64,000 nt of DNA from Promethearchaeia archaeon (lineage in GTDB: Archaea > Asgardarchaeota > Lokiarchaeia > Sigyniarchaeales > SOKP01): contig JAHQWG010000025.1 of the NCBI GenBank assembly GCA_029856045.1, positions 1 to 64,000 of the forward strand. The letters are read 5' to 3'. Positions 33,008 to 63,200 of the stretch are shown piece by piece. The first letter of the stretch is position 1; every line of letters starts with the position of its first letter. The position numbers were made by a program, and so were the translations under genes. The notes under the pieces are model-generated. The model worked only from the letters and a program-made list of their open reading frames with translations, was not told where the DNA came from and did not search any database.

Positions 33008-35302
33008 CTACACTTCTCTTCGTATTTCTTCTATCACAATAGCATATTTTTCAAGTAGTTTTATTAATTTCTTATTATCAGGAACGCTCTTTAATTTTTT
33101 TTCGTATTCTGGATAATATTTAATTAATTTATTATATAAAGAATTTAGAGATTCTTGTAAATCATTTTCTTTTTTGAAATTTTTAGAAATTGATTTTAAT
33201 GCATCTAAATGTTTTGGTTGTTCTAGGCAAGAAATTAATTTTTTATAATAGAGAATTATAATTTTTGAGTATTCTTCGGGATGGAAATTAACTAAATAAT
33301 CATCAATATCAAAATCCCAATGTGGTATAAAACTTATATATTTATCAACAGGATTTTCTTTATTATCTAAAAGATTTAATTCAAGATTTGATTTATTTAA
33401 CTTTTCCAATAAAGGATATAAAATACCGGGACTAACTTTTGTTTCTTGTTCAATTATTGGTGCAATGTCAGAGATTAATAGTCTATATTCTGGGTATTGT
33501 TCAGGGTTTTCAATCCGATATATATATTCGTTTTTAATTAAATTAATAATTTCATCTTCAAGAATCATATCACGTTCTTTTACAAATGAGACAGTTCTAT
33601 CCTTTATGGATTCAGTATGTTCTTGTTCCGATATAAGTTTTTTTGAAAAATCAGTTGAGAGAGATTGAATGAATTTATCTGAAGCTTTTTCTTTATCAAT
33701 TTTTTTTTGAAGTTGCATTGTATCACCAGGTTGCTTCTGAAGGGATTCTACTAGTTGTTCTGATAAATAATGTCTTGCTTTTTTAGCAGCTTTTCCTTTC
33801 TTTTGAAATTTTTCGGTAATTGAAGTGAATTCAGCATATTTTCTTTCTGTACCTTCTTTTTCTTGTCGGATTATTACTCTAAAATCAACTTTTTTATCAT
33901 CAATTTTGCGAATAATTGAATAAACAATTCCCTTAGATAATTGGGATGCCTTTATTAATTCAATTTCAATTAGATCAATTGGAAAGGCTTCACCCCTTCG
34001 AATAAATTCATTCCTCAAAATTTTTAATATTGTTTCTATACTTTTTTCTTCTTCTTTAACAATCTCTTTTTGAATTCGCATAAACATTGAAGTTTCATGA
34101 GGTTTTAAGTAATAAACTAAAATAGTTAATCCTAATAAGAAAATCATAATAATTGAAATTAGATAACGATCATGCGCTAATAATTCTGAAAATCCACCAA
34201 TTTCTTGGTTTGGAGCGCTAGTAGCTACAGCGAATCGTGATATGGTTTGTCCTAAAACACAAGCTAGAAAAAACATTATTAAACCATCTTTTTTAAAGAA
34301 TAAAATTCGCCATCCCAGAGTAGTACCAATTTTTCGTATTATTCTTACTAAAAATATCATTGAAATAATAAATTCAAAGAAAAATAGGTATCCGATTACA
34401 TTTGAAGCTCCACCAAAAGCTCCTTTTAACGCATCTGATGTTTCTGGTAGAAGAATTGTATATAATGTCACTTGGTAAATTTGATAAAAAAATATGAAAA
34501 AAACAATTATAGCAAATGTAAAATTATCAAATAATCCCGCTCTTCTGGTTTCTGCCCGCTTTCTAGTAAGAACGAATTCAATAATTATGAATACAATAGT
34601 TGTAATCAGTGAAATATATATTAATGGCATTACTCTTTTCATTTCAATCAGATAAACTTCAATTGATCCTATTGGATTTATAGTTCCCAAGAAATCTAGA
34701 GTGAGAAAAACAATAAAAGCTCTAAAAGACCAAGATATAATCACTAAAATTCCTAAAATTAGAAATGGAATTAAAAAGATTGCAAAATTTCTTATAACTG
34801 AATATTTTGCAACTACTTTTGCCTCAATTTTAGTAGAAAATTTTCTTGAATATGTATAAAATCTTGAACTTTGTAAAAATAGCCAGATCATCGCTAACAT
34901 TAAAAGAAAGCTCATATAATTTAATTGAAATATGGTGTCTATTAAGAAAAATAGAAAATAACATCCTGTAATTAATCCGAAAAAAATACCTATCTGCTTA
35001 ATAACAGTATTTTTTTCAAATATAAATTGCCTTATTTTATCCACGCTAAATAATATAGAGAGTGAAAAAAAAAATAAAATTAATGCATTTCCAAAAATAA
35101 AAGGGTTTCCAAACATCATAATTTGGAAAAAAAGATTATCTGGATTATTGATATTAAAAAAAATCATAAAAGAAAAATATAAAAAAATTCCAAATAATCC
35201 CCAAAATTTTTTTCCATAATAAGATTTTGGAGGTTCTTTCCCTTTTACATAAATCTCTTTATTAAAAATGACTTTTTTAAGATTTAAATAAATATTTTTC
35301 AT
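33008..35302 (-). CDS. Polytopic membrane protein (about 10 TM) with a cytoplasmic tandem repeat
   Basis: Hydrophobic first ~400 aa, then two related ~75-aa units. Confidence 0.7.
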   Translation of the reverse strand: MKNIYLNLKKVIFNKEIYVKGKEPPKSYYGKKFWGLFGIFLYFSFMIFFNINNPDNLFFQIMMFGNPFIFGNALILFFFSLSILFSVDKIRQFIFEKNTVIKQIGIFFGLITGCYFLFFLIDTIFQLNYMSFLLMLAMIWLFLQSSRFYTYSRKFSTKIEAKVVAKYSVIRNFAIFLIPFLILGILVIISWSFRAFIVFLTLDFLGTINPIGSIEVYLIEMKRVMPLIYISLITTIVFIIIEFVLTRKRAETRRAGLFDNFTFAIIVFFIFFYQIYQVTLYTILLPETSDALKGAFGGASNVIGYLFFFEFIISMIFLVRIIRKIGTTLGWRILFFKKDGLIMFFLACVLGQTISRFAVATSAPNQEIGGFSELLAHDRYLISIIMIFLLGLTILVYYLKPHETSMFMRIQKEIVKEEEKSIETILKILRNEFIRRGEAFPIDLIEIELIKASQLSKGIVYSIIRKIDDKKVDFRVIIRQEKEGTERKYAEFTSITEKFQKKGKAAKKARHYLSEQLVESLQKQPGDTMQLQKKIDKEKASDKFIQSLSTDFSKKLISEQEHTESIKDRTVSFVKERDMILEDEIINLIKNEYIYRIENPEQYPEYRLLISDIAPIIEQETKVSPGILYPLLEKLNKSNLELNLLDNKENPVDKYISFIPHWDFDIDDYLVNFHPEEYSKIIILYYKKLISCLEQPKHLDALKSISKNFKKENDLQESLNSLYNKLIKYYPEYEKKLKSVPDNKKLIKLLEKYAIVIEEIRREV

Positions 35303-37063: not shown

Positions 37064-37357
37064 TTGATTTTACAATATAGGGAAAATTTTTTTATGAGCG
37101 AAGATAATTTAAAAATCCAAGAATATGTCAGAAAAGCGATAGAACTCTTATGTCAAAAGAACTTTTCAGATGTAGTTATATTAAGCTCTTATAAAATCAA
37201 TTCCGTTTTAAGAGAGTATTTTGGTGTAGATATTAAAGTGGATAGAATTGGTCGAATGCTTGCGAATATTGCCAAGCAAAATCAGTTAAAAAGACTTAAA
37301 ACAAATATTCCCAAATATTCCCTAAAGATCTCTCGTTTATCAAAACTTAAATTCTAG
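37064..37357 (+). CDS. Small basic hypothetical protein (start probably the ATG at 37094)
   Basis: ORF; possible winged-helix pattern. Confidence 0.55.
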   Translation: MILQYRENFFMSEDNLKIQEYVRKAIELLCQKNFSDVVILSSYKINSVLREYFGVDIKVDRIGRMLANIAKQNQLKRLKTNIPKYSLKISRLSKLKF

Positions 37358-37379: not shown

Positions 37380-38795
37380 TTATATTTTTTTTACTTTCTT
37401 AATAGATTTTTGTAATGTTTCTAATTGAGAGGCCAATTTTTCAGTTTGTTCATTAATTACAGATAATCCATCCGAGATATTATTAATTTCCTCATTTAAG
37501 ATCTCGTTGAATTTGGTTGATATTGTATTAACTTTCTGATTTATTCCCGATATTGTTTTTTCCGTATTTTCATTTGAATTATTAACAATTTCAGTTTGTT
37601 TATTTACATCTTGAGTGATTTTTTCTTGAATTTTTTCCAAATCCTTAAAAATTTTTGAATTTTGTTTTATTTTTTCTCCAATTTCATTAATTTTTTGAGT
37701 AATATTCTCATTGATAATCTTGACAATGTCTTCAACGATAAGATCGATGTTCTCATTAATTTCTTTTGTAAGTTCAATTTCAGAATCTAATCTTTCTTGT
37801 ACTTGGTTTTTAATTTCCAACTTAAATTCTTCCATTTGAGTTGATAAGGTCTTTTCAAACCATTCTTCTACTTTTTTAATACCTAAATTTATTGAATTCT
37901 GCATAGTAGAAATAGTATTAGCTATAAAAGCTGAACTTTTTGAAGTACCAACTGTAATATCATGCGTCCATTTATTTATTTTGTCTTGAAATGTTGGTAA
38001 AAAATTGTCTTTAAGTTCTTGGGTGCCCTTCATATAACCATCTATAGTAGGCTTTAAGGGAGATTTCTCTTTTATTTCAACAATCTCTCCTTCAGTAGGT
38101 TTAGGAATTTCTTGAAGGTCTCCAATTTCATCATACTCTTTTATTATAATGGGACTTTCTTTTTGGGATTCTTCAACTAGATTTTTAATAATTTTGAAAA
38201 AATCTAAGGATTTTGAAGGCTCGAGTTCAACAACGATTTCATGATAATCACTTTTTTCACCTAATTGATAATTATCTAATCTGAAAGACTTAAACCCAAA
38301 AGAATCTTTTTTTCCCATTAGTGAATGATCAAATACAACTGCAAAGGCATCGGGTGTTCCTTCCTTTTGCCAAAATAAATGGTTTTTAATATCCATATTT
38401 GTAAAAATTAACCCTAATCTCGGGTGGCTATGATACCAACCAATTATAGACATTTTCTTTTCATTGGCCTCTTTATCAATAGAAGTAAATTTCTTGTAAT
38501 CTAGCTCATTAAATTCGACATCCATACCTGATCCATGATTTACCGGAACAGCTTCATAACAAATTAGATCTTTTCCTTTTTCTGCCTTTTTTCCGATACA
38601 AACACCTAGAGCTTCTACGCTTTTCTCAAGACCTTCGTTACCGAAGCGTAAAACATGAGAAATCATAGCAATATAAGCATCTGATTTTATTATTACTTTT
38701 CCTTCATGTGAAAAATCTTTATCAACTACTTTATCTTGAGAAAATCTTTTGCCAGGTGGCTTAAGTCCATTACTCGGAGGTGGTTCTGGAGACAT
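37380..38795 (-). CDS. JAMM/MPN-domain metalloprotease with a long C-terminal coiled coil
   Basis: EALGVCIG; GWYHSHPRLGLIFTNMD (Thr at the usual Ser position). Confidence 0.85.
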   Translation of the reverse strand: MSPEPPPSNGLKPPGKRFSQDKVVDKDFSHEGKVIIKSDAYIAMISHVLRFGNEGLEKSVEALGVCIGKKAEKGKDLICYEAVPVNHGSGMDVEFNELDYKKFTSIDKEANEKKMSIIGWYHSHPRLGLIFTNMDIKNHLFWQKEGTPDAFAVVFDHSLMGKKDSFGFKSFRLDNYQLGEKSDYHEIVVELEPSKSLDFFKIIKNLVEESQKESPIIIKEYDEIGDLQEIPKPTEGEIVEIKEKSPLKPTIDGYMKGTQELKDNFLPTFQDKINKWTHDITVGTSKSSAFIANTISTMQNSINLGIKKVEEWFEKTLSTQMEEFKLEIKNQVQERLDSEIELTKEINENIDLIVEDIVKIINENITQKINEIGEKIKQNSKIFKDLEKIQEKITQDVNKQTEIVNNSNENTEKTISGINQKVNTISTKFNEILNEEINNISDGLSVINEQTEKLASQLETLQKSIKKVKKI

Positions 38796-38798
38796 TTT

Positions 38799-40214
38799 TT
38801 AAGAACCTCCTTGATTTTTATCATTGATATCTTTTAATTTTTGAATATTATTAGACACTGTATCTAAGATTGAAATAGTAGAATCTAAAGAACTAATAGA
38901 ATCTTCTTGCTTCTTTTTAATTTCATTAATCTCCTTTATTAAAGGCTTTAGAGTTTTTTCTAATTGTTTTTTAATCTTTTCCGTGTTTGAATCTATTTCT
39001 TGCACCGTTTCATTACTTAGTTGATTAATTTTCCTGGAAACCTCATCAATTAATTTAGTATTTTGAATTATATGATTAGAGTTATTCTCATAACTAGATT
39101 TTAATGAAGTAAATTTTTGTTTACTGTTATTGATTAATGAATTTGTTTCATTAATTATTGCATTTATTTGTTCTGTGAATATTTTAGATGTATTCGATTC
39201 AATAGTATCTTTTAGTTGGTGGATTGAATTTTTTAATGCGGTTTTATTAATATCTAATGTATCTAATTTATCATCAATATATGTTTCCATATCTCTAAAT
39301 ATATCCATAATTGCAAATTTAGTCCAAGTGTGTAATTCCCTCAGACCAATTGATAGGTTATTCTTTAAGGTTATTAGATTTTCTCTAGTTTTTAGATTGA
39401 TATCAGTTGTTAATTTAGTCGTTTTTTGACCCCATTGGTTTAGATATCTAAATAATGGTTCAAAGAACGAATAAATAAATTTTGAAATACCATCATTCAA
39501 TGATTGCAATAATACCATTAAATTTAAATCAGGTTGTTTTGCCATAATTTGACTTTGACTGGGAATAGAAATTTCTCCAAAGATATCTGGAGTTTCATTA
39601 ATTTCTAAAATGACAGGTTCTTTTTTATGAATGTTATCTATTAAATTTTTAATTTCATGATAAAATCCAATATTATCAGGAGGTTCCACAACAAATTTTA
39701 CCTCATGATAACTAGTTGGTATTTCCGTAAAAGAAGGTTTATCTAATCGAAAAATTTTAAAACCCATATTTCCTTGCTTCTCTAATAGTTCATGATCGAA
39801 GACAATTCCAATTGCACTGGGATTTGGATTTTGAAATCCTAATTGATTTATGAGGTCAACTGCTGAAAAAAAGACGCCTAGACCAGGATGAGAGTGGTAC
39901 CAACCAACGGAAAACCACCCCTTATCAGCAACCTCTTGATCTACACTTGCAAAAGCTATATAATCGGCTTCTGCAAATTGTACTTCAATTTGACCTCCAT
40001 GATTTATTGGAATCGCATCTCTAACTATAACATCTTTAATTTCTCCAGAACCTTCTAATTCTCCTAATAACACACCCATACATTCACGGTAATTATCAGG
40101 ATCCTTAATTTTTGAACCAAACCGTAAAACATGAATAAGCATTTTATAATAAGCTAATGGTTTAATGATTACCTTCGAGTTATCAATGAAATTTTGCTTT
40201 TGTGTGTGTGCCAT
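38799..40214 (-). CDS. Rpn11/CSN5-like JAMM metalloprotease with a long C-terminal coiled coil
   Basis: LAYYKMLIH...ECMGVLLGE; GWYHSHPGLGVFFSAVD canonical JAMM motif. Confidence 0.9.
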   Translation of the reverse strand: MAHTQKQNFIDNSKVIIKPLAYYKMLIHVLRFGSKIKDPDNYRECMGVLLGELEGSGEIKDVIVRDAIPINHGGQIEVQFAEADYIAFASVDQEVADKGWFSVGWYHSHPGLGVFFSAVDLINQLGFQNPNPSAIGIVFDHELLEKQGNMGFKIFRLDKPSFTEIPTSYHEVKFVVEPPDNIGFYHEIKNLIDNIHKKEPVILEINETPDIFGEISIPSQSQIMAKQPDLNLMVLLQSLNDGISKFIYSFFEPLFRYLNQWGQKTTKLTTDINLKTRENLITLKNNLSIGLRELHTWTKFAIMDIFRDMETYIDDKLDTLDINKTALKNSIHQLKDTIESNTSKIFTEQINAIINETNSLINNSKQKFTSLKSSYENNSNHIIQNTKLIDEVSRKINQLSNETVQEIDSNTEKIKKQLEKTLKPLIKEINEIKKKQEDSISSLDSTISILDTVSNNIQKLKDINDKNQGGS

Positions 40215-40411: not shown

Positions 40412-41089
40412 TTAATTGTAGTCCTTGAATTCCTTTCCACAACTTGGGCAATGCTTTATCTGAAATCCACAGAAAGGACAAAAAATCTTTCCCAAAGTTT
40501 GTTTTTTTAAATCTTCTGTTTCAGCAGTATCTTTAGATGGAATCTTGGGAAGTTCTTTCTCAGTTGAAATTATTTTAGGAGCTTCTTCTTGAATAATTGA
40601 TTCTTTTTCAACATTAAGTTTTTTAGAAATTGCTTTAGCTTTTGTTCTTTGGAGAAAGTGTTCACGTTCCGATAATTCCGGAATATGTTCTTTAACCCAC
40701 CCTTGAGCTTTAACCCTTTTTAATTCTGATTCTGGAACTTTCTCTAACTGTACTTCCTTTATTTCTTGAATTGGAGCTATAACTTTCTTCTTATCTTTAT
40801 TCTCCTTTGCCTGTCTCAATAAAAATTGAGTTGTTTTCATGATTTGATGAGGATTGATATTTGGGATTGCAACTGTTTTGAGGACCCAACTAACGATATG
40901 ATTTCCATTAGGTATATCTTGGTCTACATTGTCGTAAATATAAGAATCTATAATTGTATCTTTTCCTTTCATTAATCTAGATGCCCATTTTTCATTAATC
41001 ATTCCTAATTGTAATCTGTAGGAAGTCCCAGCAATTCCAAGCTGAGAAGTGAGTGGTTCAAAATCTTTTTCTGACATGATTTTACCCAA
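40412..41089 (-). CDS. Hypothetical protein with a C-terminal zinc ribbon
   Basis: CPFC...CPSC. Confidence 0.7.
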   Translation of the reverse strand: MGKIMSEKDFEPLTSQLGIAGTSYRLQLGMINEKWASRLMKGKDTIIDSYIYDNVDQDIPNGNHIVSWVLKTVAIPNINPHQIMKTTQFLLRQAKENKDKKKVIAPIQEIKEVQLEKVPESELKRVKAQGWVKEHIPELSEREHFLQRTKAKAISKKLNVEKESIIQEEAPKIISTEKELPKIPSKDTAETEDLKKQTLGKIFCPFCGFQIKHCPSCGKEFKDYN

Positions 41090-41405
41090 AATGAATTTTA
41101 TTAATGATATAAATTATTTTTCTATTTTTATAATTTATTCAAAATTATTATATCTTTATAATTTTTGACTGAAATTTTGTTTATGTTTAAATATAAAATT
41201 GATGAAATTTTTTAATATTAAAATTCTCTATAGTTGTTGATATTTTACAGAAATGATATTTTTTATATTATGTCGATTCTCTCCTTATATTTAAAAAGAA
41301 TATTCCCCTAAATGTTAATGCTACAATAAATATTCTTAAATATTGTGGAACTTCTAAAATCAATGGAATTAAAAAGAATAATTTGTATTTTTATTAAGGG
41401 AGAGT

Positions 41406-44400
41406 ATGAAAAAATTGGAAGATTTTAATGAAAATGATGAGGATTTCAGTTTAATCGATTTATACCCAAAATATGTAATCAATTCTAAAGGAATACTTAA
41501 GGATTTTGATATAGCATATGTAGCAAGATCAATTAATAGAGAAACCGGATTGGAATTAGAAACTTGCGAAGTAATTGCTCAGGAGGTTCTACGAAAAATA
41601 ATCGGGCAAGGGTTAAAAAGAGTTTCTACCAATTATATTAGGGAGATAGTATGCCTTGAATTAACTGCAAGAGGATTAGAAAAATTTAGAAACATTTATG
41701 CTCGTTATATTAACATTAGTATGACCAAATTCTCTTTAGATGTGGATTTCATTGAAAAATTTAAAGAAATTCATCCAAAATGGGGTCCCTTAGGTTATAT
41801 TACTTATAAGAGAACTTATGCAAGATATATCGAAAAAGAAAATCGAAAAGAAGAATTCTGGGAAACACTGAAAAGGGTTGTTGAAGGATGTTTCTCAATT
41901 CAAAAAGAGCATTGTGTAAAATTAGGATTACCTTGGAATGAAGATAAAGCTCAAAAATCTGCTCAAATAATGTTTCAAAAAATGTGGAATTTTAAATTTA
42001 TTGCTCCAGGTCGTGGATTATGGATAATGGGAACCCCATTTATTGACCGACACGGAAGTATGGCCCTTAATAATTGCGGTTTTGCCTCAACTGAGGATAT
42101 TGATATTAAAGGGACGATTCCATTTGAATGGACAATGGATGCATTAATGCTGGGTGTTGGTGTTGGATTTGACACAAAAGGGGCAGGAAAAATAATTATT
42201 AAGAAACCTAAAAAAGATGATTTTCTATTTCGCATTCCAGATAGCAGAGAAGGATGGGTTGAAGCACTAAAATATACTTTAGAGGCATATTTTTTTGAAA
42301 AAACCATACCAAAATTGGATTATTCCTTAATAAGACCGGCGGGGGAATTAATTAGAGGATTTGGAGGAATCGCCTCTGGACCAGAACCGCTTGAAAAAAT
42401 GATTGAAAACATTAAAGATCTTTTAAACCAACGTATTGGAGATAAACTTCGTTCAACAGATATAGTCGATATCATGAATTTTATTGGCAAATGCGTAGTT
42501 GCCGGGAATGTCCGCCGGAGTGCTGAAATAGCCCTTGGAGATATAAATGATACGGAATTTATAACTATGAAGCAAGATAAGGAGAAATTAACGTCCCACC
42601 GCTGGGCGAGTAATAATTCAATATTTGCAAAAATAGGTATGGACTATTCATTTGTGGCTGAACAAATTGCAAAAAATGGTGAGCCAGGTGTATTATGGTT
42701 AGAAAATTCAAGAGCTTATTCAAGAATGGCTGAACCCCCCGATTATAAAGACAAAAAAGTGGCTGGTGTAAATCCTTGTATTACAGGAGATACTTTAATA
42801 GCGGTTGCAGATGGTCGGAACGCTGTATCAATTAAGCAGTTAGCTGAAAAAGGATTGGATGTACCTGTTTATTGCAGGGACAATAATGGCAGAATTGTTA
42901 TAAGAATAATGCGGAATCCAAGAATTACAAGGATAAATGAAGAAATATATGAAGTCAAATTAGATGATGGAAGTCAAATAAAATGTACGGGTGATCATAA
43001 ATTCATTTTAAAAGATATGAGCGAAAAGGAAGCTAAAGATTTACGAAAAGGTGACTCCCTTATGATTATGGCAAAATGGCAAACATCTTGGGATGAAATG
43101 ATGGGAAGTGAGCGTAAGGAGAAAAAAACAATTTATTGGATGATAAATGACGGGAGAAAAAATATTTTTGAACATACATTTATTTTTGAGTCGTATTATA
43201 ATAAAAAGGTACCTAAGAACCATGTAATACACCATAAGGATAACATTGGAACTAATAATGATATAAAAAACCTGGAGATGATGTCGAAGGAAGAACATGA
43301 TTTATTACATGATATATCTGGCGATAAAAACCCAATGCGACGATGGTGGAGCAAGGCTTCGAAAGAGGAGAAAAGGAGATATAGAGAGAGTATGTCGAGA
43401 GCGGTTTCTGGGGAAAAAAACCCACGATATTCGGGATATTCAGATGATTTGATATATAATGAAATGGTTAATTTAATTAAACGGAATGGAGCACCATTAT
43501 CTAGCGGAATATGGAGAAAGCATGCAAAAAAGATTGGAATGCCATTTACATCCCCAAGATGGGGTCATACTCAAACTCCTACTAATTTAATGAAACGTGC
43601 TAATATTGAGTGTGGGTATGAATATCAAAAAGATCCTGTTTCTAGAAGGGAATACAATAGATTTATTAAGCTATTAAAAAGTTCTGACTTAAAACTATCT
43701 TTTGAAAAAGGTATAATTTATGTAGAAAAAAAATGTGAGGGATGTGGAAATTCATTTAAGATAAAATATTCTAATAGAGAACAAGCTTATTGTTCAAGAC
43801 CTTGCTTATTACGATCAATACATGATAAAGGACAAGAAGCTCTTAAGAAGAAATATAAAAAAATTCGAAAAAAAAAGCAAGAGTTGATTTTTAAATTATT
43901 AATTAAGGAAATTTCTTTAAAGAAAAAAATTCCTTCAAAACACGATTTCCTGAAAATTTTAAGAGAGAATGGAATTGCTGACTTTCGAAGTGCTGGTATG
44001 TCTGATAGTTATGCGTACATCCTCGATCAAATTACTGAGAACTTTAAAACAATTAAAGTAGATTCTAAAAAATTATCGCGTGATGAAGGCTATGCAAAAT
44101 TAGTTGCTAGTAGATGGATTGAAAATGGAGTAAATTATAACCATAAAATCGTATCTGTCAAGAAGATTGGAATAGGAAATGTCTTTAATGGAACGGTGGA
44201 TGAATTTCATAATTTTGGAATTGTTTTAGATGAGAAAAAGACTAAATCTGAAAGAATTAAATTGGAAATAATATTTACAGCGAATTGTGGAGAACAGAGC
44301 CTTGAATCATATGAGCTATGCTGCTTGGTGGAGTCCTTTCCTTCAAATCATGAATCCTACGAGGAGTTTCAAGATACGCTAAAATATGCATATCTTTATG

Positions 44401-45176
44401 CAAAATCAGTTACTTTATTAAATACACATTGGAAGCAAACAAATGCAATTATGGGCAAAAACAGAAGAATTGGCACTTCCCAATCGGGAATAATTAATGC
44501 CTTTATTAAACATGGGCGTAGGGAAATATTTAAATGGTGTGAAAAAGGTTACAAATACTTAAAGGAGTTGGATTCAAAATATTCAGATTGGCTAACTACC
44601 CCTAAGTCAATTAAGATGACTTCAATAAAGCCCAGTGGCAGTGTAAGTTTACTTCCGGGAGTAACTCCAGGAATACATTATCCGCATTCTGAATATTACA
44701 TACGTAGGATTCGCTTTAATGAAAATTCAGATTTGCTTCCATTTCTTAGAGAAGCCGGATATGAAATTCACACAGATAAATACTCTCCCAACACAAGCGT
44801 TGTAGAATTCCCTATTCATGAGGAATATTTTGAAAGGGCAAAGAAAGACGTATCGATGTGGGAACAGTTAGAAAATGCTGCTGCATACCAGAAATATTGG
44901 GCTGATAATCAAGTGTCCATCACAGTTACTTTTAAAGAAAAAGAAGCAAAAGAGATTAAAGTTGCTTTAGAAATATTCGAAGATAAGTTGAAAGGAGTTA
45001 CATTCCTTCCCTTGAATGAACACGGTTATGAACAAGCTCCTTATGAAGAAATTACACAAGAACAGTATCATGAAATGAAATCGAAATTAAAACCACTCAA
45101 CCTGAGTACAGTTAAAAGTGAAGCACTGGGTGAAAGATTTTGTGATGCAGATTTCTGTGAGATTAAATTCAAATGA
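41406..45176 (+). CDS. nrdJ: Class II (B12-dependent) ribonucleotide reductase, RTPR-like, with an N-terminal ATP cone and an intein
   Basis: TYKRTYAR, PGRGLW, LNNC, VVAGNVRRSA, RWASNNS, GEPG, NP/CGEQ, KPSGSVS, C-terminal CDADFC. Confidence 0.93.
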   Translation: MKKLEDFNENDEDFSLIDLYPKYVINSKGILKDFDIAYVARSINRETGLELETCEVIAQEVLRKIIGQGLKRVSTNYIREIVCLELTARGLEKFRNIYARYINISMTKFSLDVDFIEKFKEIHPKWGPLGYITYKRTYARYIEKENRKEEFWETLKRVVEGCFSIQKEHCVKLGLPWNEDKAQKSAQIMFQKMWNFKFIAPGRGLWIMGTPFIDRHGSMALNNCGFASTEDIDIKGTIPFEWTMDALMLGVGVGFDTKGAGKIIIKKPKKDDFLFRIPDSREGWVEALKYTLEAYFFEKTIPKLDYSLIRPAGELIRGFGGIASGPEPLEKMIENIKDLLNQRIGDKLRSTDIVDIMNFIGKCVVAGNVRRSAEIALGDINDTEFITMKQDKEKLTSHRWASNNSIFAKIGMDYSFVAEQIAKNGEPGVLWLENSRAYSRMAEPPDYKDKKVAGVNPCITGDTLIAVADGRNAVSIKQLAEKGLDVPVYCRDNNGRIVIRIMRNPRITRINEEIYEVKLDDGSQIKCTGDHKFILKDMSEKEAKDLRKGDSLMIMAKWQTSWDEMMGSERKEKKTIYWMINDGRKNIFEHTFIFESYYNKKVPKNHVIHHKDNIGTNNDIKNLEMMSKEEHDLLHDISGDKNPMRRWWSKASKEEKRRYRESMSRAVSGEKNPRYSGYSDDLIYNEMVNLIKRNGAPLSSGIWRKHAKKIGMPFTSPRWGHTQTPTNLMKRANIECGYEYQKDPVSRREYNRFIKLLKSSDLKLSFEKGIIYVEKKCEGCGNSFKIKYSNREQAYCSRPCLLRSIHDKGQEALKKKYKKIRKKKQELIFKLLIKEISLKKKIPSKHDFLKILRENGIADFRSAGMSDSYAYILDQITENFKTIKVDSKKLSRDEGYAKLVASRWIENGVNYNHKIVSVKKIGIGNVFNGTVDEFHNFGIVLDEKKTKSERIKLEIIFTANCGEQSLESYELCCLVESFPSNHESYEEFQDTLKYAYLYAKSVTLLNTHWKQTNAIMGKNRRIGTSQSGIINAFIKHGRREIFKWCEKGYKYLKELDSKYSDWLTTPKSIKMTSIKPSGSVSLLPGVTPGIHYPHSEYYIRRIRFNENSDLLPFLREAGYEIHTDKYSPNTSVVEFPIHEEYFERAKKDVSMWEQLENAAAYQKYWADNQVSITVTFKEKEAKEIKVALEIFEDKLKGVTFLPLNEHGYEQAPYEEITQEQYHEMKSKLKPLNLSTVKSEALGERFCDADFCEIKFK
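42777..44285 (+). mobile_element. 503-aa intein with an HNH homing endonuclease
   Basis: Interrupts NP|CGEQ; starts CITGDTLI, block B CTGDHKF, HHKD....NN...NL......EH, ends HNF...IIFTAN|C. Confidence 0.92.
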
Positions 45177-45317
45177 ATTAACATGAAATATCATTCAATT
45201 ATTAAAAAGTCAAGAGATTTTAGACAAATATTATTAAGTTTATTAAGTAAATAATCTTAATAATTGTGAAATACCAATACTTATTATATTACAATATAAA
45301 GAAAAGGTTGAAAGATA

Positions 45318-46592
45318 ATGGTAAAAATTATTCATCTTGCAGATACTCATCTTGGTTTTCGATTAAGAAAGAACTTTAAAAATGACTGGTTTAAATTTGG
45401 TGAAATTCGATGGTATGAAAATGATTTTTATAAGAGATGGGATGATTTTTTTAATTATTGTATTGATAATAAGGATAATATCGATTTTATAGTTCATTCG
45501 GGAGATATTTTCCATACTCCATTCGGAGAAAATCCATTTCCACCACCAGAACCGGCAAGAGAAGTTGTCGTTAAAAGCTTAAAAATTTTTTTTAAAGAAA
45601 CTGAAAATAAAATTCCCATTATCTTAATTGATGGTAATCATGGTATTTATCAAGGATATAGATATTCAATTATGGACAGCATTACTTCCATCTTTCCAAA
45701 ACTCCATTATTTTTCCGTCTGGGACTTAAAACATGCAATAACTAATACTCAACAATTAACTTTAGAATTTCCAGATAAAAGCACTCGATTTTATTTGTTT
45801 CCTTATTTTGAATTTACTCTAAACAATGATATTAAAGTTGAATATGATAAATGGATTGAAAAACAAAGACCTAAAGAGGATATAGTCGAGATTGCTGTAG
45901 TTCATGGATCTGATGTCGATAAAACACTTCACGAGAAATTAAAATCATTCAATTACTCATACATTGCATTAGGCCATGAACATAACCAAAGAAAAATTTC
46001 CGGTAATGCTTATTATTCAGGATCATTTGTACCACTTAATTTTGATGAGGTAAATATTTCAAACGGGTATTTAGAAGTTATAATTGAAAAAAATAAGAAA
46101 CCCGTGGTCAAGAATCATATTTTCGAGAAAAATCGTGCTTTTGAAGAAATTGATATAGAAGTAGACCCATCAACTACAAGTAATTCAATATTTTCTACCA
46201 TAGAAGAAAAAATTGAACCATTTAAGACCCAAAAATGGGAAGGGGTTTCTGCCGCTCGATTAAAAATTAATTTTAGAGGTAATATTTCTCTTACAAGTTT
46301 TTGGAATTTAAGCGAAGAATTAAGATCATTTCAGTCTAAAGTTATTAATGAAGGGAATTATAATATTTTACAACTTATTATCGACTGGCATGAAGTTTCG
46401 AAAGATTTGGGTGATGAGTTAGCTCCTGAAATCATAGAAGAATACGTATTAAGTAATCCTAAAGAGGAATTTCTGGAATATATTCACGGAAAAATTAAGC
46501 CAGCTGAAGGGTATAATGTAGATTTATTAGCAGAAATCGCAATAGAAGCAATTGAAACATCTTTAAAAAAATTTGGCGGAGAAACTGATTGA
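45318..46592 (+). CDS. mre11: Mre11/SbcD nuclease
   Basis: ADTHLG, HSGDIFH, DGNH, VHG, YIALGHEH, YSGS. Confidence 0.9.
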   Translation: MVKIIHLADTHLGFRLRKNFKNDWFKFGEIRWYENDFYKRWDDFFNYCIDNKDNIDFIVHSGDIFHTPFGENPFPPPEPAREVVVKSLKIFFKETENKIPIILIDGNHGIYQGYRYSIMDSITSIFPKLHYFSVWDLKHAITNTQQLTLEFPDKSTRFYLFPYFEFTLNNDIKVEYDKWIEKQRPKEDIVEIAVVHGSDVDKTLHEKLKSFNYSYIALGHEHNQRKISGNAYYSGSFVPLNFDEVNISNGYLEVIIEKNKKPVVKNHIFEKNRAFEEIDIEVDPSTTSNSIFSTIEEKIEPFKTQKWEGVSAARLKINFRGNISLTSFWNLSEELRSFQSKVINEGNYNILQLIIDWHEVSKDLGDELAPEIIEEYVLSNPKEEFLEYIHGKIKPAEGYNVDLLAEIAIEAIETSLKKFGGETD

Positions 46593-48694
46593 GAATCAAA
46601 AAAGTGGAATTTAAAAATTTCAAATGTTTTCCAGATTTAATACTTCCTGAAAGAGAAGACGAGAATTTCTCTGAAGGTTTATTTTTAATACAAGGGACAA
46701 CTCCTGAGAGGTCAAATAGTTTCGGGAAAACAAGTTTTGTTGAAGGAATTCTTTTTGGCTTGTTTGGACCGAAAAGCACAATTTTATCAATCAATAATTT
46801 AATTACTTTTGGACAAGAAAAAGGAGAGATAAAGATAATATTTGAGCTCGACGGTATCGATTATATGATACAAAGATTATTGAATAGAACGAGTTCAAGT
46901 GGTTCCCAAAAATTAAGAACTTATATAAGAGTTAATAATAATTGGAAATCCGACAACACGATTAATATTGAGGAATTAATAGAGATAAAGAGAGAACAAG
47001 CATTACAAACAGCTTTTGTAAAACAAGGTCAAATAGAGAGTTTGGCATCAGCTAGTCCAGCGAAATTACGGGATTTAATAATAGATTTATTTCGTTTAAA
47101 TATTGTTGATTATGCTTCAGATTATCTTAAGAATATGAATAAAGTTGCAATAAATCGGATAAAAGCTATAAATAAAAATTATATTTCTCCTTCAGAAATT
47201 GATAAAAATATTAATAAAAAAGAACAGCAATTAGCAGAAAATAGCATAGACCTTAAAAATAATTTCACAAAAATCGATACGTTAAAAACTCAGTTAAAGA
47301 ACTTGCCTGATAAGGGAAAATTAATTGAACTTAATGAAATTAAGGAAAAAATTAAACAAGGTATTGGCAAAATTGAGGTATTCTTAGAACAATTAGCCAA
47401 TAAATTAAAAACTTTAAGCTCAGATGATAATATCCAAGAGTCCAATATTGATCATTTTATAAAAACAAAAGAAAATGAAATCACTAAATTAGAAAGTAAT
47501 AAAGATACACTGTCAGAAGCATTAAAAAAAGTTCTTTCAGAAATGAATAAGAAAAAGGGAATTATTTCACAGATTGAAAAAAACAAAAGTAAAATAAGTA
47601 AAAATTTTAATTTTAAAGGAGGAAAGCAAATAGCTAAGTGTCCAACTTGTACAAGAGAGATAAGTTTTCATGATGCTCAAGAGATTATAAATCACTATGA
47701 CAGTGAGATTAATAATTTAAAAAATGATATAAATAAATTAAAACCAAATTTGGGAGAATTAGAAAATAAAAAAGGAGATATCGAAAATAGGTTGGATTAC
47801 TTAAAATCAACTCATAGAAACCTGCAAGAGATTAAAGATATTTACATAAAAAAGAAGAAATATGAAGTAGAGATAGAAAATAATAGATTAGAGAACTTAA
47901 AATTATTAAAAAAATTTAATACATCAACAGAGAAGGAATTTTTAGAAAAATTTAATGTTAAAAATATCGATCAATTAAGAGAAAAAATAATCAAAATCGA
48001 TGGTGAAATAAATTCCCTAATACAAGTAAATAAGAGAATCGAAAGTGAAAATAATTATTTAAAGAATGAAATCCAGGAGCTCAAATTAAAAAAGGAGAAT
48101 ATGATCAAACTTCGAGATGAAAGAGAACAGCTAGAGACGAAAATTAAGCATATTGATAAAAATAAAGAATTAGTAAAAGGATTCATAACAGAATATATGG
48201 TTGAAAAGAGACTAATCCATAATATCCAATATGAAACTAAAAGATTTCTAAAATATTTTTCAGGTGGTCAATACTCCAATCTAAATTTAACAAGCATTGA
48301 TAAAGGACGTGGAATAAAAATTGATGTATTTGATGAATTTAGCCAAACTATTAAAGATATTGATTTTCTTAGTGGAGGAGATAAAGTTGCTCTTGGATTT
48401 GCTTTAAGAATGGGGATCTCAGAGTTAATGACAAAAATCAGACCAACCAAAAATTCTCCAAAGAAAAATCCTAAAATTGATTTTATGATTTTAGATGAAC
48501 CATTAGCAGCATTAGATAAAGATCGTAGAACACAAGTATTAACAACTCTTGAAAGTCAAAAAGATTTTAATCAAATATTTTTAATTACACACACAAATAT
48601 ACCAGAAGAAATTAAGCCAAATTTTATAAAAATCGCTAAAAATTTTGAAAATGGGCTAAGTTCGGCCATTTATATAGATAAAGAAAAAAATTAA
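46589..48694 (+). CDS. rad50: Rad50/SbcC ATPase
   Basis: NFK, GKTS, KQGQI, CPTC zinc hook, LSGG, ILDEP..LD, ITH. Confidence 0.9.
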   Translation: MRIKKVEFKNFKCFPDLILPEREDENFSEGLFLIQGTTPERSNSFGKTSFVEGILFGLFGPKSTILSINNLITFGQEKGEIKIIFELDGIDYMIQRLLNRTSSSGSQKLRTYIRVNNNWKSDNTINIEELIEIKREQALQTAFVKQGQIESLASASPAKLRDLIIDLFRLNIVDYASDYLKNMNKVAINRIKAINKNYISPSEIDKNINKKEQQLAENSIDLKNNFTKIDTLKTQLKNLPDKGKLIELNEIKEKIKQGIGKIEVFLEQLANKLKTLSSDDNIQESNIDHFIKTKENEITKLESNKDTLSEALKKVLSEMNKKKGIISQIEKNKSKISKNFNFKGGKQIAKCPTCTREISFHDAQEIINHYDSEINNLKNDINKLKPNLGELENKKGDIENRLDYLKSTHRNLQEIKDIYIKKKKYEVEIENNRLENLKLLKKFNTSTEKEFLEKFNVKNIDQLREKIIKIDGEINSLIQVNKRIESENNYLKNEIQELKLKKENMIKLRDEREQLETKIKHIDKNKELVKGFITEYMVEKRLIHNIQYETKRFLKYFSGGQYSNLNLTSIDKGRGIKIDVFDEFSQTIKDIDFLSGGDKVALGFALRMGISELMTKIRPTKNSPKKNPKIDFMILDEPLAALDKDRRTQVLTTLESQKDFNQIFLITHTNIPEEIKPNFIKIAKNFENGLSSAIYIDKEKN

Positions 48695-48721
48695 TTATAT
48701 AAAAATATTGAGTGAAAAAAA

Positions 48722-50479
48722 ATGATAATTAATATAAATGCATTAGAGAGAGTTATTGAACTTAATATTGAACAATATTATCCTGTTCATAGTTATATAA
48801 AATTAGATTGCCCGAAAGATAAACCCAAATATACTATTTTATGTATGAACCAGCAAGTTATGACTGTCGAAGAATATATTGAATTAAGACGTCAAACTGC
48901 AAATATTGAAATCAACGAATATTTAATAAAATTGCTTCAGACGGGATTAAAATATGTCTTATTCGCAGCACCTATCCTTTTAATAGATCATGAAAAAGAA
49001 ATGAAAGAGTTGAAAAAAACTAAACCTGATAAGAATAATTATGTGATGAAACGAAATGTACTCATTGAAATTGAAAAGCTTATGCAAGGTGGTGTGTTAT
49101 CTCCCCATACTTCAGAAATTTCTGAAGATCAAAGTGATATACCAGTTCTATTGGAAAATATTTTTCCTCAATCAAATGGGGTCTTTATTGGGCGTTTATT
49201 GTATGATAAAACAAATGTATATATTCCAATCAAGTCATTACCGGTTCATTTAGGAATTATTGGAACGACAGGAGCAGGGAAATCTAATTTAATGCAAGTT
49301 ATGATTAATGGAGCAGTTGATCATAATTTAGAAGTAAAAACTAAGAATTTAACTAATATTCCATTAGTTTCTTCACTTGCAATAGACCCACATGATGAAT
49401 ATGCTTTGGGACCAGAAGGGAGGGGATTATATCACCTTGTTAATTTATTAGATTTAAAAATTAGAAATGATATTTTTGGTTCTTTTTTCTATTTATATCC
49501 AAGGGGGACAAGAATTCAAAGCATATTATCTCCTTTTTCTTTAGAATGTGTTATAAATTACGAGGAAATAACTCCTTTGGATGTATTAAATGTTCAAAGT
49601 TTTACTGGGGTACAATCTGAAGTTATGGAAGCAGAGTATTTTGTTGCTCATGATGATTGGATTGAAGATATATTAACCGGTACTTTAACCTCATCTGGAC
49701 ATCATGATGCTTCTATAGCTGCTGTACGAAGAAGATTACGTCCTATTGAAAGATCTAATATTTTTCAGCCCCAATCAGCGAATAGTTCAACCTTGCCTGA
49801 AATTATTTACGCTTTGGAAAGTGGTAAAACTTTAGATTTTAATTGTTCCTTGTTAAGTGATTTTGAAATGTTTCTTTTTAATACAGTTGTGGCAAGAACA
49901 ATTTTCAATATTAGGAAAGCGCTAAAAGCATCAGCTACTATGACTGATTTTAAGGCTCAATTATTCTCTCGTTTGCCCAACTCGTTCGTTAAAAGTTATG
50001 AAAATAAATTGAACATATATATTACCAAAGGAAACGAAGTTAAAGATCCAACAGATATGCCAATTGTAGTTTTTACAATCGAAGAAGCTCCCTCTATACT
50101 CAACCCAGATTTGATGAGGGGCCCAAATATCTTCAAAGATATAGCAAGACAAGGAAGAAAATTTCATATTTCATTGGCTGTGATTAGTCAACAGATTTCT
50201 ACATTAGATAATGCAATAATTTCAAATCTTAACACATATATTGATTTACCTGTTGGTAGTGATAAAGAGAGAAGAGGGCTTATTGATAATGCTTCAAGCT
50301 CAATCCAGATAAATGATCTTAAATCTTTGGAGGGGACATTAGGCGTTTCAATAATAAACGGAAATTGGCTTACAAAATTTCAAAAGATCATTATTCCAAG
50401 ATATAAAGATCATTTTGAAGAAAATAAAGCAAAATATAGTAGATATAAATCAATAGGTACGAAGACTCCCTTGATTTAA
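48722..50479 (+). CDS. herA: HerA helicase/translocase
   Basis: HLGIIGTTGAGKS, IDPHDEY, IEEA, IARQGRKF...L..ISQ. Confidence 0.88.
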   Translation: MIININALERVIELNIEQYYPVHSYIKLDCPKDKPKYTILCMNQQVMTVEEYIELRRQTANIEINEYLIKLLQTGLKYVLFAAPILLIDHEKEMKELKKTKPDKNNYVMKRNVLIEIEKLMQGGVLSPHTSEISEDQSDIPVLLENIFPQSNGVFIGRLLYDKTNVYIPIKSLPVHLGIIGTTGAGKSNLMQVMINGAVDHNLEVKTKNLTNIPLVSSLAIDPHDEYALGPEGRGLYHLVNLLDLKIRNDIFGSFFYLYPRGTRIQSILSPFSLECVINYEEITPLDVLNVQSFTGVQSEVMEAEYFVAHDDWIEDILTGTLTSSGHHDASIAAVRRRLRPIERSNIFQPQSANSSTLPEIIYALESGKTLDFNCSLLSDFEMFLFNTVVARTIFNIRKALKASATMTDFKAQLFSRLPNSFVKSYENKLNIYITKGNEVKDPTDMPIVVFTIEEAPSILNPDLMRGPNIFKDIARQGRKFHISLAVISQQISTLDNAIISNLNTYIDLPVGSDKERRGLIDNASSSIQINDLKSLEGTLGVSIINGNWLTKFQKIIIPRYKDHFEENKAKYSRYKSIGTKTPLI

Positions 50480-50505
50480 ATAGTTAAACAAAAAGTGGAT
50501 TATTT

Positions 50506-51669
50506 GTGGGATTAAAAAAATATAAATTAATAGAATTAGAAGAATCACTGAAAAAGGCAGAATTACCCGCTCAAATAGAAGAATTAAAAAAAGAACACGT
50601 TCAGTGGACCAAGGAAAAAAAAGAATTAAGAGATAAATATAAAGAAGAACTTGAAAAAGAAAAAACAGATATTATTATTAAACAAATGAAGCATAAGCCT
50701 ATTAAAGGCGTAGATGAAACATTTTTTAAGCAAGGAGGGTTATTAATTGGATTTGATGAAAGTCAAAATTCAAAGATTGGCACTTATGCAAGAGTTTCAT
50801 GCTTTAAATTCGGAGAAAGTCAGGTAAGTTATGAAGATAGTAGATATAAATATAGAGATTATATGTATGAGCCATTATTTGGATATTTAGAAGATAGCTA
50901 TCAAAAAATTAAAATTTATACTGATGCAATAGAATATTTTGTGAAAAATTTAGAAGATGAATTCAAAGGAACCTTTTTGAAACATTCAGTTACCGAAATA
51001 AGAAAATGGTATGAAAAAGTATTTCCCGTGGAAACAGGATTAGAATGGAAACATAATTTACCTTCTGTAGGTCATGTTGCTGATCGTATTAGAACAGCAG
51101 ATGAATTATTATGTACCGTTATAAGAATGAAACAAATTAAGACTGAATTTCCAGATCGAGATATTATATTTTTAGGAGATGGTATTAGTGCTTTTAGACC
51201 TCATATTTTTCCCCCAATTCATTTTGTTCAATTTTTTCTTAAATTTCTCAAGGAATATAAATTAAAATATTATACTTTTTCAAAAACTTGTAGATTACGT
51301 GAAAAAGATACTGGTGTTTTTATTTTACCCGTGTTTTCTAAAATTATTGAAAAAGATCCATTTATAGTAGAGATACCACAAAAACATTCAGTAAGCAACT
51401 CTCACCTTGTAAGATTGATAAAAAGAGATATGCCTGCCTTGAGATTTGACGTCCCAAGAGAGATTGATTTAAGTGGAGCAATTGCAATTGTTAAAAAGAT
51501 TATTCCACTTTCTCCACTTGGCTATCCATTATGTCTAGAGCACGCTCATAATGCAGGTAGATTGACGAATTTGGAATGGAGAATATTAGATATTAAATTT
51601 AGAGGTGCTCAAGAAGATCCTAGAACTAAAAATTTAGTTTCAAATTTAAGAAAATATGTTCTACCTTAA
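50506..51669 (+). CDS. nurA: NurA nuclease
   Basis: GFDES, E, LGDG, SKT, GYP.CL..AH; directly after herA. Confidence 0.8.
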   Translation: MGLKKYKLIELEESLKKAELPAQIEELKKEHVQWTKEKKELRDKYKEELEKEKTDIIIKQMKHKPIKGVDETFFKQGGLLIGFDESQNSKIGTYARVSCFKFGESQVSYEDSRYKYRDYMYEPLFGYLEDSYQKIKIYTDAIEYFVKNLEDEFKGTFLKHSVTEIRKWYEKVFPVETGLEWKHNLPSVGHVADRIRTADELLCTVIRMKQIKTEFPDRDIIFLGDGISAFRPHIFPPIHFVQFFLKFLKEYKLKYYTFSKTCRLREKDTGVFILPVFSKIIEKDPFIVEIPQKHSVSNSHLVRLIKRDMPALRFDVPREIDLSGAIAIVKKIIPLSPLGYPLCLEHAHNAGRLTNLEWRILDIKFRGAQEDPRTKNLVSNLRKYVLP

Positions 51670-51850
51670 AAAAGAAGTCTTTCTTTCTCAAAAGTATTGA
51701 ATAACCTTAAGATAGAATAAAAATTAAAAATTTGATTCATAAATCATTTTTAAATAATGAGATAAATATCGTTTGGTTTATAAGGAATTACAAAAAATAA
51801 AAAATGAAATTTTCAAGAATTCATAATTTACAACTTAAAAGGTATTAGAA

Positions 51851-53008
51851 ATGGGGAAAAAACCAATTACCGCAAAAAAATCTACCCCTCCGAAAAAAGA
51901 TTCCACTCAGACTAATAAAGAACAAGTAAATAACACCAAAACTCCCGAAAAAAGGAAAATTACTACTAAAGGCTCCATAAACAAAAAGAAATCAACTTCT
52001 ACAAAAAAAAAGGAACCCAAGGAAAAATTAAATTCCTTAAAAATTCTTAAAAAATCTCCATATTTAAAACACTCAACCTCCGTTCAAAAAAATAAAAAAG
52101 TACTTACTTTGAAAGAACTTTTTGAAAATAATCTCGTTGATAAAAAGGAAAATAAAATGGAGATTATTTTAACTGGGCAATATCAAAAAGTAATTGAATT
52201 GATAATGGAAACAGATGCAGCTAATTTAACTCCAATATTGGTTGGGCCACCTGGTGTTGGTAAAACAACATTATGCAGATATTATGCTCAAATAAGGGCT
52301 GAGATAACTGGAAATGATTCTTTTGAATGGTTAACATTTGATGAATCAACTAAACCATCTCATTTAGTAGGTTCTTTTAATCCAGCGATAACAATTCAAA
52401 AGGGATTCTTGTTTGATGCTTTCAATCCCGGTCCACTTACAAAAGCGATGTTGATGGGTGGAGTGTTTCTTGCAAATGAAATTAATAGAGCAACGGAATA
52501 CACTCAAAATTCTTTATTAGAACCATTGGAAGAAAGAATGATTTCTATTCCTCATATTGGACGAATAAAAGCATCACCTGGTTTTTTCTTTATTGGGGCA
52601 ATGAATCCATCGGAATTGGTAGGTACACATCGACTTGGAGAAGCGCTAAAGGATCGTTTTAATGTTTGGATAGAACTTGATTATCCCAAGAAACAGACGG
52701 AGATAAAAATAATCGAGCATAATAACCCATACTTTAAAATTGAAGAGGGTTTATTGGAAAAAATATATTTACTTGTTAATCGAACGCGAACTCACCATCA
52801 GATTCAGATTCCAGCAAGCCTAAGGAGTGGTATTACAATGGCTCGGCTTACTGGTATCAATATCTCAAAAAATCAAAAATTGAATTCAAATAAAATTTTG
52901 GGAGAAGTGGCAAATTATGTTTTAGCTGGATCTATTCAACCTAAACCTGGTATTAAAGCAAAAGATATCGTCAGAAGTATTATTACTCAAGTTATTGGAA
53001 CTTCTTAA
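51851..53008 (+). CDS. MoxR/CoxD-like AAA+ ATPase with a K/T-rich N-terminal tail
   Basis: GPPGVGKT, GPL..AM..G, FLANEINR, AMNP, ALKDRF, SLR. Confidence 0.88.
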   Translation: MGKKPITAKKSTPPKKDSTQTNKEQVNNTKTPEKRKITTKGSINKKKSTSTKKKEPKEKLNSLKILKKSPYLKHSTSVQKNKKVLTLKELFENNLVDKKENKMEIILTGQYQKVIELIMETDAANLTPILVGPPGVGKTTLCRYYAQIRAEITGNDSFEWLTFDESTKPSHLVGSFNPAITIQKGFLFDAFNPGPLTKAMLMGGVFLANEINRATEYTQNSLLEPLEERMISIPHIGRIKASPGFFFIGAMNPSELVGTHRLGEALKDRFNVWIELDYPKKQTEIKIIEHNNPYFKIEEGLLEKIYLLVNRTRTHHQIQIPASLRSGITMARLTGINISKNQKLNSNKILGEVANYVLAGSIQPKPGIKAKDIVRSIITQVIGTS

Positions 53009-53042
53009 TTAAAAAATTGCAATGATCAAAAAAGGATAAAAA

Positions 53043-55607: not shown

Positions 55608-55622
55608 GAATAAGTTCATAAG

Positions 55623-63173: not shown

Positions 63174-63200
63174 TCAATAATGATTTAAATTTATTTGAAG

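Follow-up and report, generated by a model that had tools for sequence, protein, structure and literature searches.

The window analyzed here, a 64,000-nucleotide (nt) stretch of DNA (positions 1 to 64,000 of contig JAHQWG010000025.1), comes from an Asgard ('Promethearchaeota') metagenome-assembled genome of 3.34 Mb in 55 contigs. It carries two adjacent genes, A and B, that each encode a JAMM/MPN domain joined to a long helical tail. The reading that we favor, with modest confidence, is that the two sister genes are expressed together and encode the subunits of a single heteromeric JAMM/MPN complex; the pair would have arisen by tandem duplication in this Loki-type Asgard family, and the complex likely acts on substrates containing a ubiquitin-like protein (Ubl). 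A would supply the zinc isopeptidase of this complex, and B would be its fold and tail partner. The pair and its junction lie as follows (lengths in amino acids, aa).

38799..40214, minus strand: gene A (P0002), an MPN+ protein of 471 aa (Pfam, PDB, AlphaFold2 and fold matches)
37380..38795, minus strand: gene B (P0001), the sister paralog of A, 471 aa (BLASTP, Pfam)
38796..38815, minus strand: the A-B junction, with GGAGG in the 3' end of A, the A stop codon, 3 nt, and the B ATG

The initial annotation of this DNA described two 471-aa paralogs 3 nt apart with shared motifs and long helical tails, and the open reading frames (ORFs), a BLASTP comparison, and an AlphaFold2 model of A all bear this out. 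The alignment of A with B shows 31% identity over 457 columns (E 6e-60) and covers both the MPN domains and the tails; the two proteins have in common the motifs KVIIK..AY..M..HVLRFG, P(I/V)NHG, and GWYHSHP. At the junction, the GGAGG lies within the last codons of A, 9 nt ahead of the ATG of B, a layout consistent with translational coupling. The JAMM motif of A, HSHPGLGVFFSAVD, follows the canonical H-x-H-x7-S-x2-D pattern, while that of B, HSHPRLGLIFTNMD, has Thr replacing Ser, as had been read originally. The MPN domain of A spans residues ~12-196 and its catalytic set comprises E44, H107, H109, S117, and D120; all five positions are kept in B (E61, H122, H124, T132, and D135), with Thr for Ser.

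The linker that follows the head of A carries a conserved motif, ILEINETPDIFGEI (ILEINE..D.FG); in B the linker motif is ..LQEIP and the helical tail measures ~240 aa. For A, AlphaFold2 (mean pLDDT 72) places the MPN domain at residues 14-196, a disordered linker at 199-230, and tail helices at 232-296 and 302-466, with 302-466 forming one helix. In both the A and B tails the hydrophobic pattern repeats every 3.62-3.64 residues, and lags of 7 and of 11 residues are mixed, which suggests that they are coiled-coil-like rather than a pure heptad coil. Weak matches of the tails were to apolipoprotein, phasin, and ZorA-type helical families, and a protein-atlas search with the tail of A gave no usable match.

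The heads of A and B are eukaryote-like MPN domains of the Rpn11/CSN5 type and not of the prokaryotic desampylase type. The Pfam JAB model (PF01398, cut-off 22.5) matches A with 52.7 bits and B with 46.8 bits, and Prok-JAB (PF14464) scores below JAB for both proteins. Against the desampylase model (HvJAMM1 type, NCBIfam NF041370) their scores are 20.6 and 16.6 bits, below the cut-off of 130. The best match of A among PDB sequences is Caldiarchaeum Rpn11 (CsRpn11, PDB 6fju/6fnn) at 47.7 bits, followed by Rpn11/CSN5 at 38.8, BRCC36 at 26.6, and AMSH at ~20; B returns the same ranking at lower scores, with CsRpn11 at 32.8 bits. Structural comparison of residues 12-190 of the A model gave Rpn8 with a Z-score of 15.7 (rmsd 3.1, 157 residues aligned), followed by Rpn11 at 15.4, CsRpn11 (34% identity over 146 aligned residues) and CSN5 at 15.3, EMC8/9 at 15.1-15.2, and BRCC36 at 13.8. 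A Foldseek search with A placed BRCC36 nominally at the top with an E value of 1.6e-11, effectively level with Rpn11 at 1.8e-11, and CSN5 also scored ~1e-11. These near-tied structural scores do not single out any one eukaryotic family as nearest. A grouping of the domains with standalone prokaryotic JAMMs, which had been put forward initially as one of the outcomes that would count against a paired complex, was not seen by Pfam, PDB, or fold matches. Judged by its sequence, A is predicted to have zinc-dependent isopeptidase activity.

The distribution of the pair was examined in 151 genomes of the phylum, drawn from the GTDB family of the window (25 genomes) and 26 other families. Full-length A/B relatives are present in all 25 sampled genomes of the window's family, a Loki-type Asgard group, and in 0 of the 26 other sampled families, where MPN genes are short (230-330 aa). 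A scan of species-representative genomes identified 123 loci with an A/B relative. Submitter taxon labels attached to such contigs (Thor-, Hermod-, Hod-, and Odinarchaeota) were not used as a sign of wide spread; several of these contigs sit in the single GTDB family of the window genome.

Gene order and catalytic residues were compared across 21 genomes from six genera, and residues were also counted in database homologs (n=118 for A, n=74 for B). A is followed by B in tandem, with a gap of -8 to +12 nt, in 20 of the 21 genomes. Selection is asymmetric between the two genes. E/H/H/S/D is the catalytic set of A in all 21 genomes and in 117 of the 118 database homologs. For B, a zinc-binding His is lost in 13/21 genomes, at least one catalytic residue is changed in 15/21, and the catalytic Glu has become Gln in 48/74 database homologs. 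The routes of decay differ, with Ser, Ile, Leu, or Val at His1, Arg at His2, and Gln at Glu, and five of the six genera are affected. Despite this decay B remains full-length and keeps its non-catalytic invariants, namely the helix with HVLRFG, P..HG, LQEIP in the linker, and Trp and Gly residues of the proximal tail. The window genome and its genus retain an intact B, in which Thr replaces Ser. As the same replacement is found once in an otherwise conserved ortholog of a third MPN gene of the locus, described below, Thr need not abolish activity.

Some further observations concern these genes and their host. The B gene of genome G141 has lost His1 and Asp. Metagenomes of marine sediment and salt marsh, from 14 studies, contain DNA of the window organism or of close strains. 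A salt-marsh metatranscriptome contains two 151-nt contigs (depth 2, 99-100% identity) that both lie inside gene A, at 39718-39868 and 39912-40062; DNA carry-over is possible.

To place the pair among its relatives, a maximum likelihood tree was calculated from 56 MPN domains (181 columns, LG+C20) of archaeal sequences. A and B are each monophyletic (support 100/98 and 99/95, respectively) and are sisters of one another (93/78), with terminal branches in B about twice the length of those in A. Five long-tailed types (A, B, and types of 316 aa, ~383 aa, and ~528 aa) form one clade (97/90). This clade stands apart from the short MPN genes, including a ~275-aa type of the window's own family. The occurrence of A and B as sister clades inside one Asgard family points to a separate duplication, and to convergence rather than ancestry of the eukaryotic pairs. 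The tree thus argues for a lineage-specific tandem duplication that would be parallel to the eukaryotic MPN pairs and not their ancestor. An MPN phylogeny was among the checks suggested at the outset: this tree of archaeal domains separates the A/B sister clades from the short operon MPN genes.

The genome contains five JAB genes overall. A fourth long-tailed MPN paralog (P0124, 528 aa; contig C25:136066-137652, L002:6067-7653) keeps its JAMM motif intact; its last ~200 aa resemble TPR-type helical repeats and match no Pfam family. Its orthologs, of 520-541 aa, were present in 6/6 other genomes checked.

Physical pairing was addressed by predicting the A+B complex from the full-length proteins, with custom alignments of 46 and 47 rows, in three runs and alongside three controls. 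The A+B prediction reached an ipSAE of 0.48 (runs 0.48, 0.48, and 0.52) and all three controls scored 0.00; at least 58% of contacts are common to the runs, and the partner pLDDT is 64 or higher. The verdict of the tool was 'weak support'. Of 80 solved complexes, 58 reach its pass mark, as do 2 of 110 mismatched pairs, but scores of 0.60 or below came from only 7 of those 80 complexes and from both of the passing mismatches. Since solved MPN pairs exist, the pass of A+B may reflect likeness to them. The AlphaFold-Multimer-type check that the initial annotation proposed for the heterodimer is therefore a weak pass. Fused A-B proteins (826-2355 aa) were searched for and none was found, a search that is rated as weak evidence.

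In the complex that we propose, B would be valued for its fold and tail and not for catalysis. By analogy with the MPN- partners of Rpn11, CSN5, and BRCC36, it may serve to position A or to activate it, by contact between the two MPN domains and by bundling of both long helical tails. In this genus both heads may cut, the catalytic set of B being complete with Thr for Ser. As substrates, conjugates or precursors of a Ubl are likely, because the genome encodes a Ubl ending in Gly-Gly-Ile as well as E1-like and E2-like enzymes. Gene anatomy, conservation, the asymmetric decay of B, and the sister relationship are observed; the physical pairing, the isopeptidase activity, and the substrate are inferred.

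The sole ubiquitin-family gene of the genome (P0123) encodes 84 aa ending in QAGG-I and lies on another contig (C34:6003-6257, L004). Its neighbors are a 407-aa ORF with no Pfam match on one side and PUA-domain and SepF genes on the other, and it is not part of a ubiquitin operon. With one extra residue past Gly-Gly, its product would need C-terminal processing. Genes for a 530-aa E1-like protein and a UQ_con E2 are found on contig C47 (31150-35499, L162) on opposite strands, with a HAD hydrolase gene between them and an IS605/TnpB-type gene after. The observation in the initial annotation that the window holds no ubiquitin or E1 gene is thus correct, both being located elsewhere. In other Asgard families a short MPN gene directly follows E1 and E2, and this contiguity suggests that the ubiquitin operon has been broken up in the present lineage. 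The genome also encodes five ThiS-like proteins (ThiS/MoaD-like matches); no ThiS/MoaD-like or PCI match occurs near the pair on the window's contig. Matches to PCI (PF01399) are found on contigs C36 and C47, but control genomes also match, so that they are not specific.

Enzyme/pseudo-enzyme MPN pairs are central to the proteasome lid, the COP9 signalosome, and the BRCC36 complexes, among which BRCC36-KIAA0157 and BRCC36-Abraxas are the cores of the BRISC and BRCA1-A complexes, respectively. BRCC36-KIAA0157 (ABRO1) unites an MPN+ enzyme and an MPN- pseudo-enzyme whose helices C-terminal to the MPN domains bundle together, and the inactive partner activates and scaffolds the enzyme (PMC4579573). 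A and B resemble these complexes in having an invariant active A, an often-decaying sister B, and helical tails on both, and BRCC36 is among the top structural matches of A. However, the tails of A and B, at ~240 residues, are far longer than the two-helix bundle of BRCC36-KIAA0157, and no UEV (BRCC45), MERIT40, or RAP80-like partners were identified for them. In further contrast to BRCC36-Abraxas, the link to DNA-repair genes is not conserved, the sequences are nearer to CsRpn11, Rpn11, and CSN5, and B is catalytically complete here. As A and B are each other's closest relatives within one archaeal family, their pairing would have arisen separately from that of BRCC36-Abraxas.

With Rpn11-Rpn8 and CSN5-CSN6 the pair shares the MPN fold, C-terminal helices, and, through its relatives, the active/inactive paralog logic; Rpn11 and CSN5 are also the best eukaryotic sequence matches of A (38.8 bits). 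Unlike in those pairs, no PCI-domain partner is encoded near A and B, the PF01399 matches being on other contigs. Unlike in the proteasome lid, no Rpt-type AAA+ unfoldase is linked to the pair, and the tails are much longer. The best PDB sequence match of both A and B, CsRpn11, is a JAMM of eukaryote-like type from an archaeon and processes a C-terminally extended ubiquitin precursor, and the Ubl of the window genome also has one residue after Gly-Gly. CsRpn11 is a protein of ~200 aa that is monomeric in solution and encoded in a ubiquitin operon (PMC6043591). A and B, in contrast, have 471 aa, are paired, are unlinked to ubiquitin, E1, and E2 genes, and belong to the long-tailed clade that is separate from the operon-type MPN genes. 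According to the 2018 study of archaeal Rpn11, an MPN+/MPN- organization is not known in archaea (PMC6043591), and no published description of the A-B pair was found in the literature searched.

The surroundings of the pair were compared over ~20 kb in 20 genomes, with all ORFs compared with the window. In 17 genomes of five other genera the gene order is a ~770-aa protein, a ~95-aa protein on the opposite strand, B, A, and a ~215-aa zinc-ribbon protein, then a divergent 316-aa MPN protein, a 734-aa ChlI/D-like AAA-VWA protein, and a ~415-aa ATP-grasp protein. The window counterparts of this ancestral cluster, which include B and A between the second and third lines below, are interrupted by a block of other genes.

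33008..35302, minus strand: ~770-aa conserved protein of no known family (synteny)
37064..37357, plus strand: ~95-aa conserved protein, convergent with B (59-78% identity across other genera, 93-95% within the genus)
40412..41089, minus strand: zinc-ribbon gene, ~221 aa, likely start ATG at 41077; directly upstream of A and co-oriented with it in all 20 loci (AlphaFold2 model)
41090..59890, no strand: genus-specific block of 18.8 kb that splits the three-MPN cluster (ORF comparison across genomes)
59891..60838, plus strand: third MPN paralog of 315 aa, JAMM motif intact, helical tail of ~130 aa; same long-tailed MPN clade
60972..63173, plus strand: ChlI/ChlD-like fused AAA+-VWA gene, 733 aa (TIGR02442 at 565 bits, below the cut-off of 779)
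63195..64000 onward, plus strand: ATP-grasp ligase-like gene, 415 aa at full length and cut by the window end; last gene of the MPN3/AAA-VWA/ATP-grasp unit (synteny)

The block sits between the zinc-ribbon gene and the third MPN gene, and measures 10.4 kb in the congener G144. In this genus it carries a class II ribonucleotide reductase (RNR) gene (nrdJ, here with an intein), mre11, rad50, herA, and a nurA-like gene that is a weak NurA match; in the window genome there are also genes for MoxR, VWA, and SWIM proteins, a hydrolase gene, and a 196-aa ORF. It is absent between the zinc-ribbon and third MPN genes in the 17 genomes of other genera. The scpB and smc genes that flank the other side of the pair in the window are likewise not neighbors in other genera, and neither are the cooC-like and Imm63 genes. 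The absence of repair and SMC genes from the locus in these five genera identifies the repair block as a genus-specific insertion, and the link to genome maintenance as a local accident of gene order. The neighboring DNA-repair genes are recent arrivals in this genus and not partners of the pair. The initial annotation had placed the pair between smc-scpB and nrdJ-mre11-rad50-herA-nurA, which is accurate apart from the weakness of the NurA match; its suggestion of a role in genome maintenance is not supported by the comparison, as the synteny with mre11-rad50 is not conserved outside this genus.

Several observations weigh against the complex proposed here. The prediction of the A+B heteromer described above is a weak one, and the lengths of the A and B tails do not co-vary (r = -0.33), which gives no support for in-register pairing. 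In G141 (contig C10; L037 5494-14356), A and B lie 6 kb apart, with about six ORFs between them that are unmatched in the window. B is not a pseudoenzyme in this genome, so the active/inactive logic rests on relatives, and because all of the genomes with the pair come from one family, part of the conserved gene order could be inherited and not selected. No ubiquitin-like, E1, or E2 genes are linked to the pair in any genome examined, and the short MPN gene of other Asgard E1-E2 operons belongs to a different clade from A and B. Some of these points would suit two independent enzymes that form homo-oligomers through their tails and act on different substrates, the tandem being a trace of duplication. 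Such independence would fit the catalytic completeness of both copies here, their separation in G141, the occurrence of other members of the long-tailed clade (315, 383, and 528 aa) as stand-alone MPN genes elsewhere in the genome, and the monomeric state of CsRpn11 in solution (PMC6043591). We nevertheless regard it as unlikely: B without zinc ligands or catalytic Glu persists at full length beside A in 15/21 genomes, which would not be expected of an independent enzyme, a gap of -8 to +12 nt recurs across the six genera, and the predicted complex passes, albeit weakly, at 0.48 against 0.00 for the controls. The paired JAMM complex put forward in the initial annotation accordingly gains from the comparative evidence (order in 20/21 genomes, an invariant A, a B that is degenerate in 15/21, and the sister relationship), while its physical pairing is only weakly predicted.

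The length of the tails raises the further prospect that A and B are mainly structural, serving as long helical tethers or scaffolds with the MPN heads as binding modules (cf. eIF3f/h, EMC8/9, and Prp8), perhaps membrane- or GTPase-linked rather than deconjugating. About half of each protein is very long helix (A 302-466 is one helix in the model), and the weak tail matches to apolipoprotein, phasin, and ZorA-type families, the match of the A head to the non-catalytic MPN proteins EMC8/9 (Z 15.1-15.2), and the fusion of the N-domain of the upstream zinc-ribbon gene to Ras-family GTPases in 3/10 longer matches can all be read in this way. The invariance of the five catalytic residues of A in 21/21 genomes and 117/118 homologs, however, points to selection for catalysis, and the third MPN also keeps its catalytic residues in 18/18 spanning orthologs (Thr for Ser once); we consider a mainly structural role quite improbable. 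A BRCC36-Abraxas-like deubiquitinase that acts with Mre11-Rad50-HerA-NurA or SMC at DNA breaks would be suggested by the position of the pair between smc-scpB and nrdJ-mre11-rad50-herA-nurA, which holds in this genome and two sampled congeners, and by BRCC36 being the nominal top Foldseek match, tied with Rpn11. Considering that the 17 genomes of five other genera have no adjacent repair or SMC gene, and carry the third MPN, AAA-VWA, and ATP-grasp genes there instead, and that BRCC36 by sequence (26.6 bits) falls below CsRpn11 (47.7) and Rpn11/CSN5 (38.8), we find this explanation highly implausible.

If the pair did arise separately in the closest archaeal relatives of eukaryotes, it would provide a natural series in which to study the evolution of such pairs and the contribution of a dead partner, with B seen losing its active site by different routes across genera and still intact in this genus. 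It would also bring unexplored components into the Asgard ubiquitin-like system, namely MPN proteins on long stalks and a conserved zinc-ribbon partner, for which the neighboring DNA-repair genes are a poor guide to functional tests. Particular to this window are the complete active site of B and the repair block that splits the ancestral three-MPN cluster. An extension of the proposed complex, which we put forward tentatively and with some doubt, is that Loki-type Asgard archaea built an 'isopeptidase plus dead twin' independently on helical stalks tens of nanometres long, with this genus keeping the pre-decay stage. Together with the zinc-ribbon protein and the third MPN, the pair might then constitute an undescribed Asgard machine for Ubl deconjugation, outside DNA repair and possibly GTPase- or membrane-linked.

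The zinc-ribbon protein consists of a strongly conserved β+α N-domain of ~100 aa, a charged, disordered linker in which short motifs are conserved, and a CPxCG..CPxCG zinc ribbon at the C terminus. A fold search with the N-domain returned no clear match (best Z-score 6.4, with EVH1/PH-like rows at 3.7-4.8, all within noise), and a protein-atlas search yielded nothing beyond the cluster of the zinc-ribbon protein itself. In a profile search the N-domain family comprised 110 clusters at E <= 1e-10. The three metagenomic proteins with a Ras-family GTPase domain N-terminal to this domain (P0221, P0240, and P0299) are from the ten longer matches scanned with Pfam.

In other genera the third MPN gene is divergent and adjoins the zinc-ribbon gene and the A-B pair, and the 18 orthologs noted above are those that span both motifs. 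The model matched by the AAA+-VWA gene, TIGR02442, is a putative cobaltochelatase with fused ChlI/ChlD, and the ATP-grasp protein resembles Ddl/RimK-type ligases. The third MPN, AAA-VWA, and ATP-grasp genes occur together and co-oriented in most genomes examined, even where they are split from A-B (window 59891-64000; L135:892-5443); in a few, one or two additional ORFs separate the MPN gene from the AAA-VWA gene. The combination of an amide-forming ligase fold and an amidase fold hints at a tagging/untagging unit, for which no candidate tag was found. The ~95-aa protein, the best-conserved gene of the cluster in cross-genus comparisons, was considered as a modifier or tag for the ATP-grasp/MPN genes and rejected: it has no Pfam match and neither a Gly-Gly nor a conserved acidic end, and is encoded on the opposite strand. 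Its gene adjoins that of the ~770-aa protein in other genera; here the cooC-like and Imm63 genes lie between them.

The Imm63 gene, located between the cooC-like and ~770-aa genes (window 35676-37038), is found only here; G144 has no gene at this place (L036:2234-3031) and the congener G125 has an unrelated 253-aa ORF (L035:11181-12837). The class II RNR of the repair block (window 41406-45176, plus strand, 1256 aa) contains an intein with an HNH endonuclease. At the same place G144 has a 753-aa ORF (L036:7400-9661) and G125 a 1101-aa ORF (L035:3508-6813), which suggests that the presence or size of the RNR intein varies within the genus.

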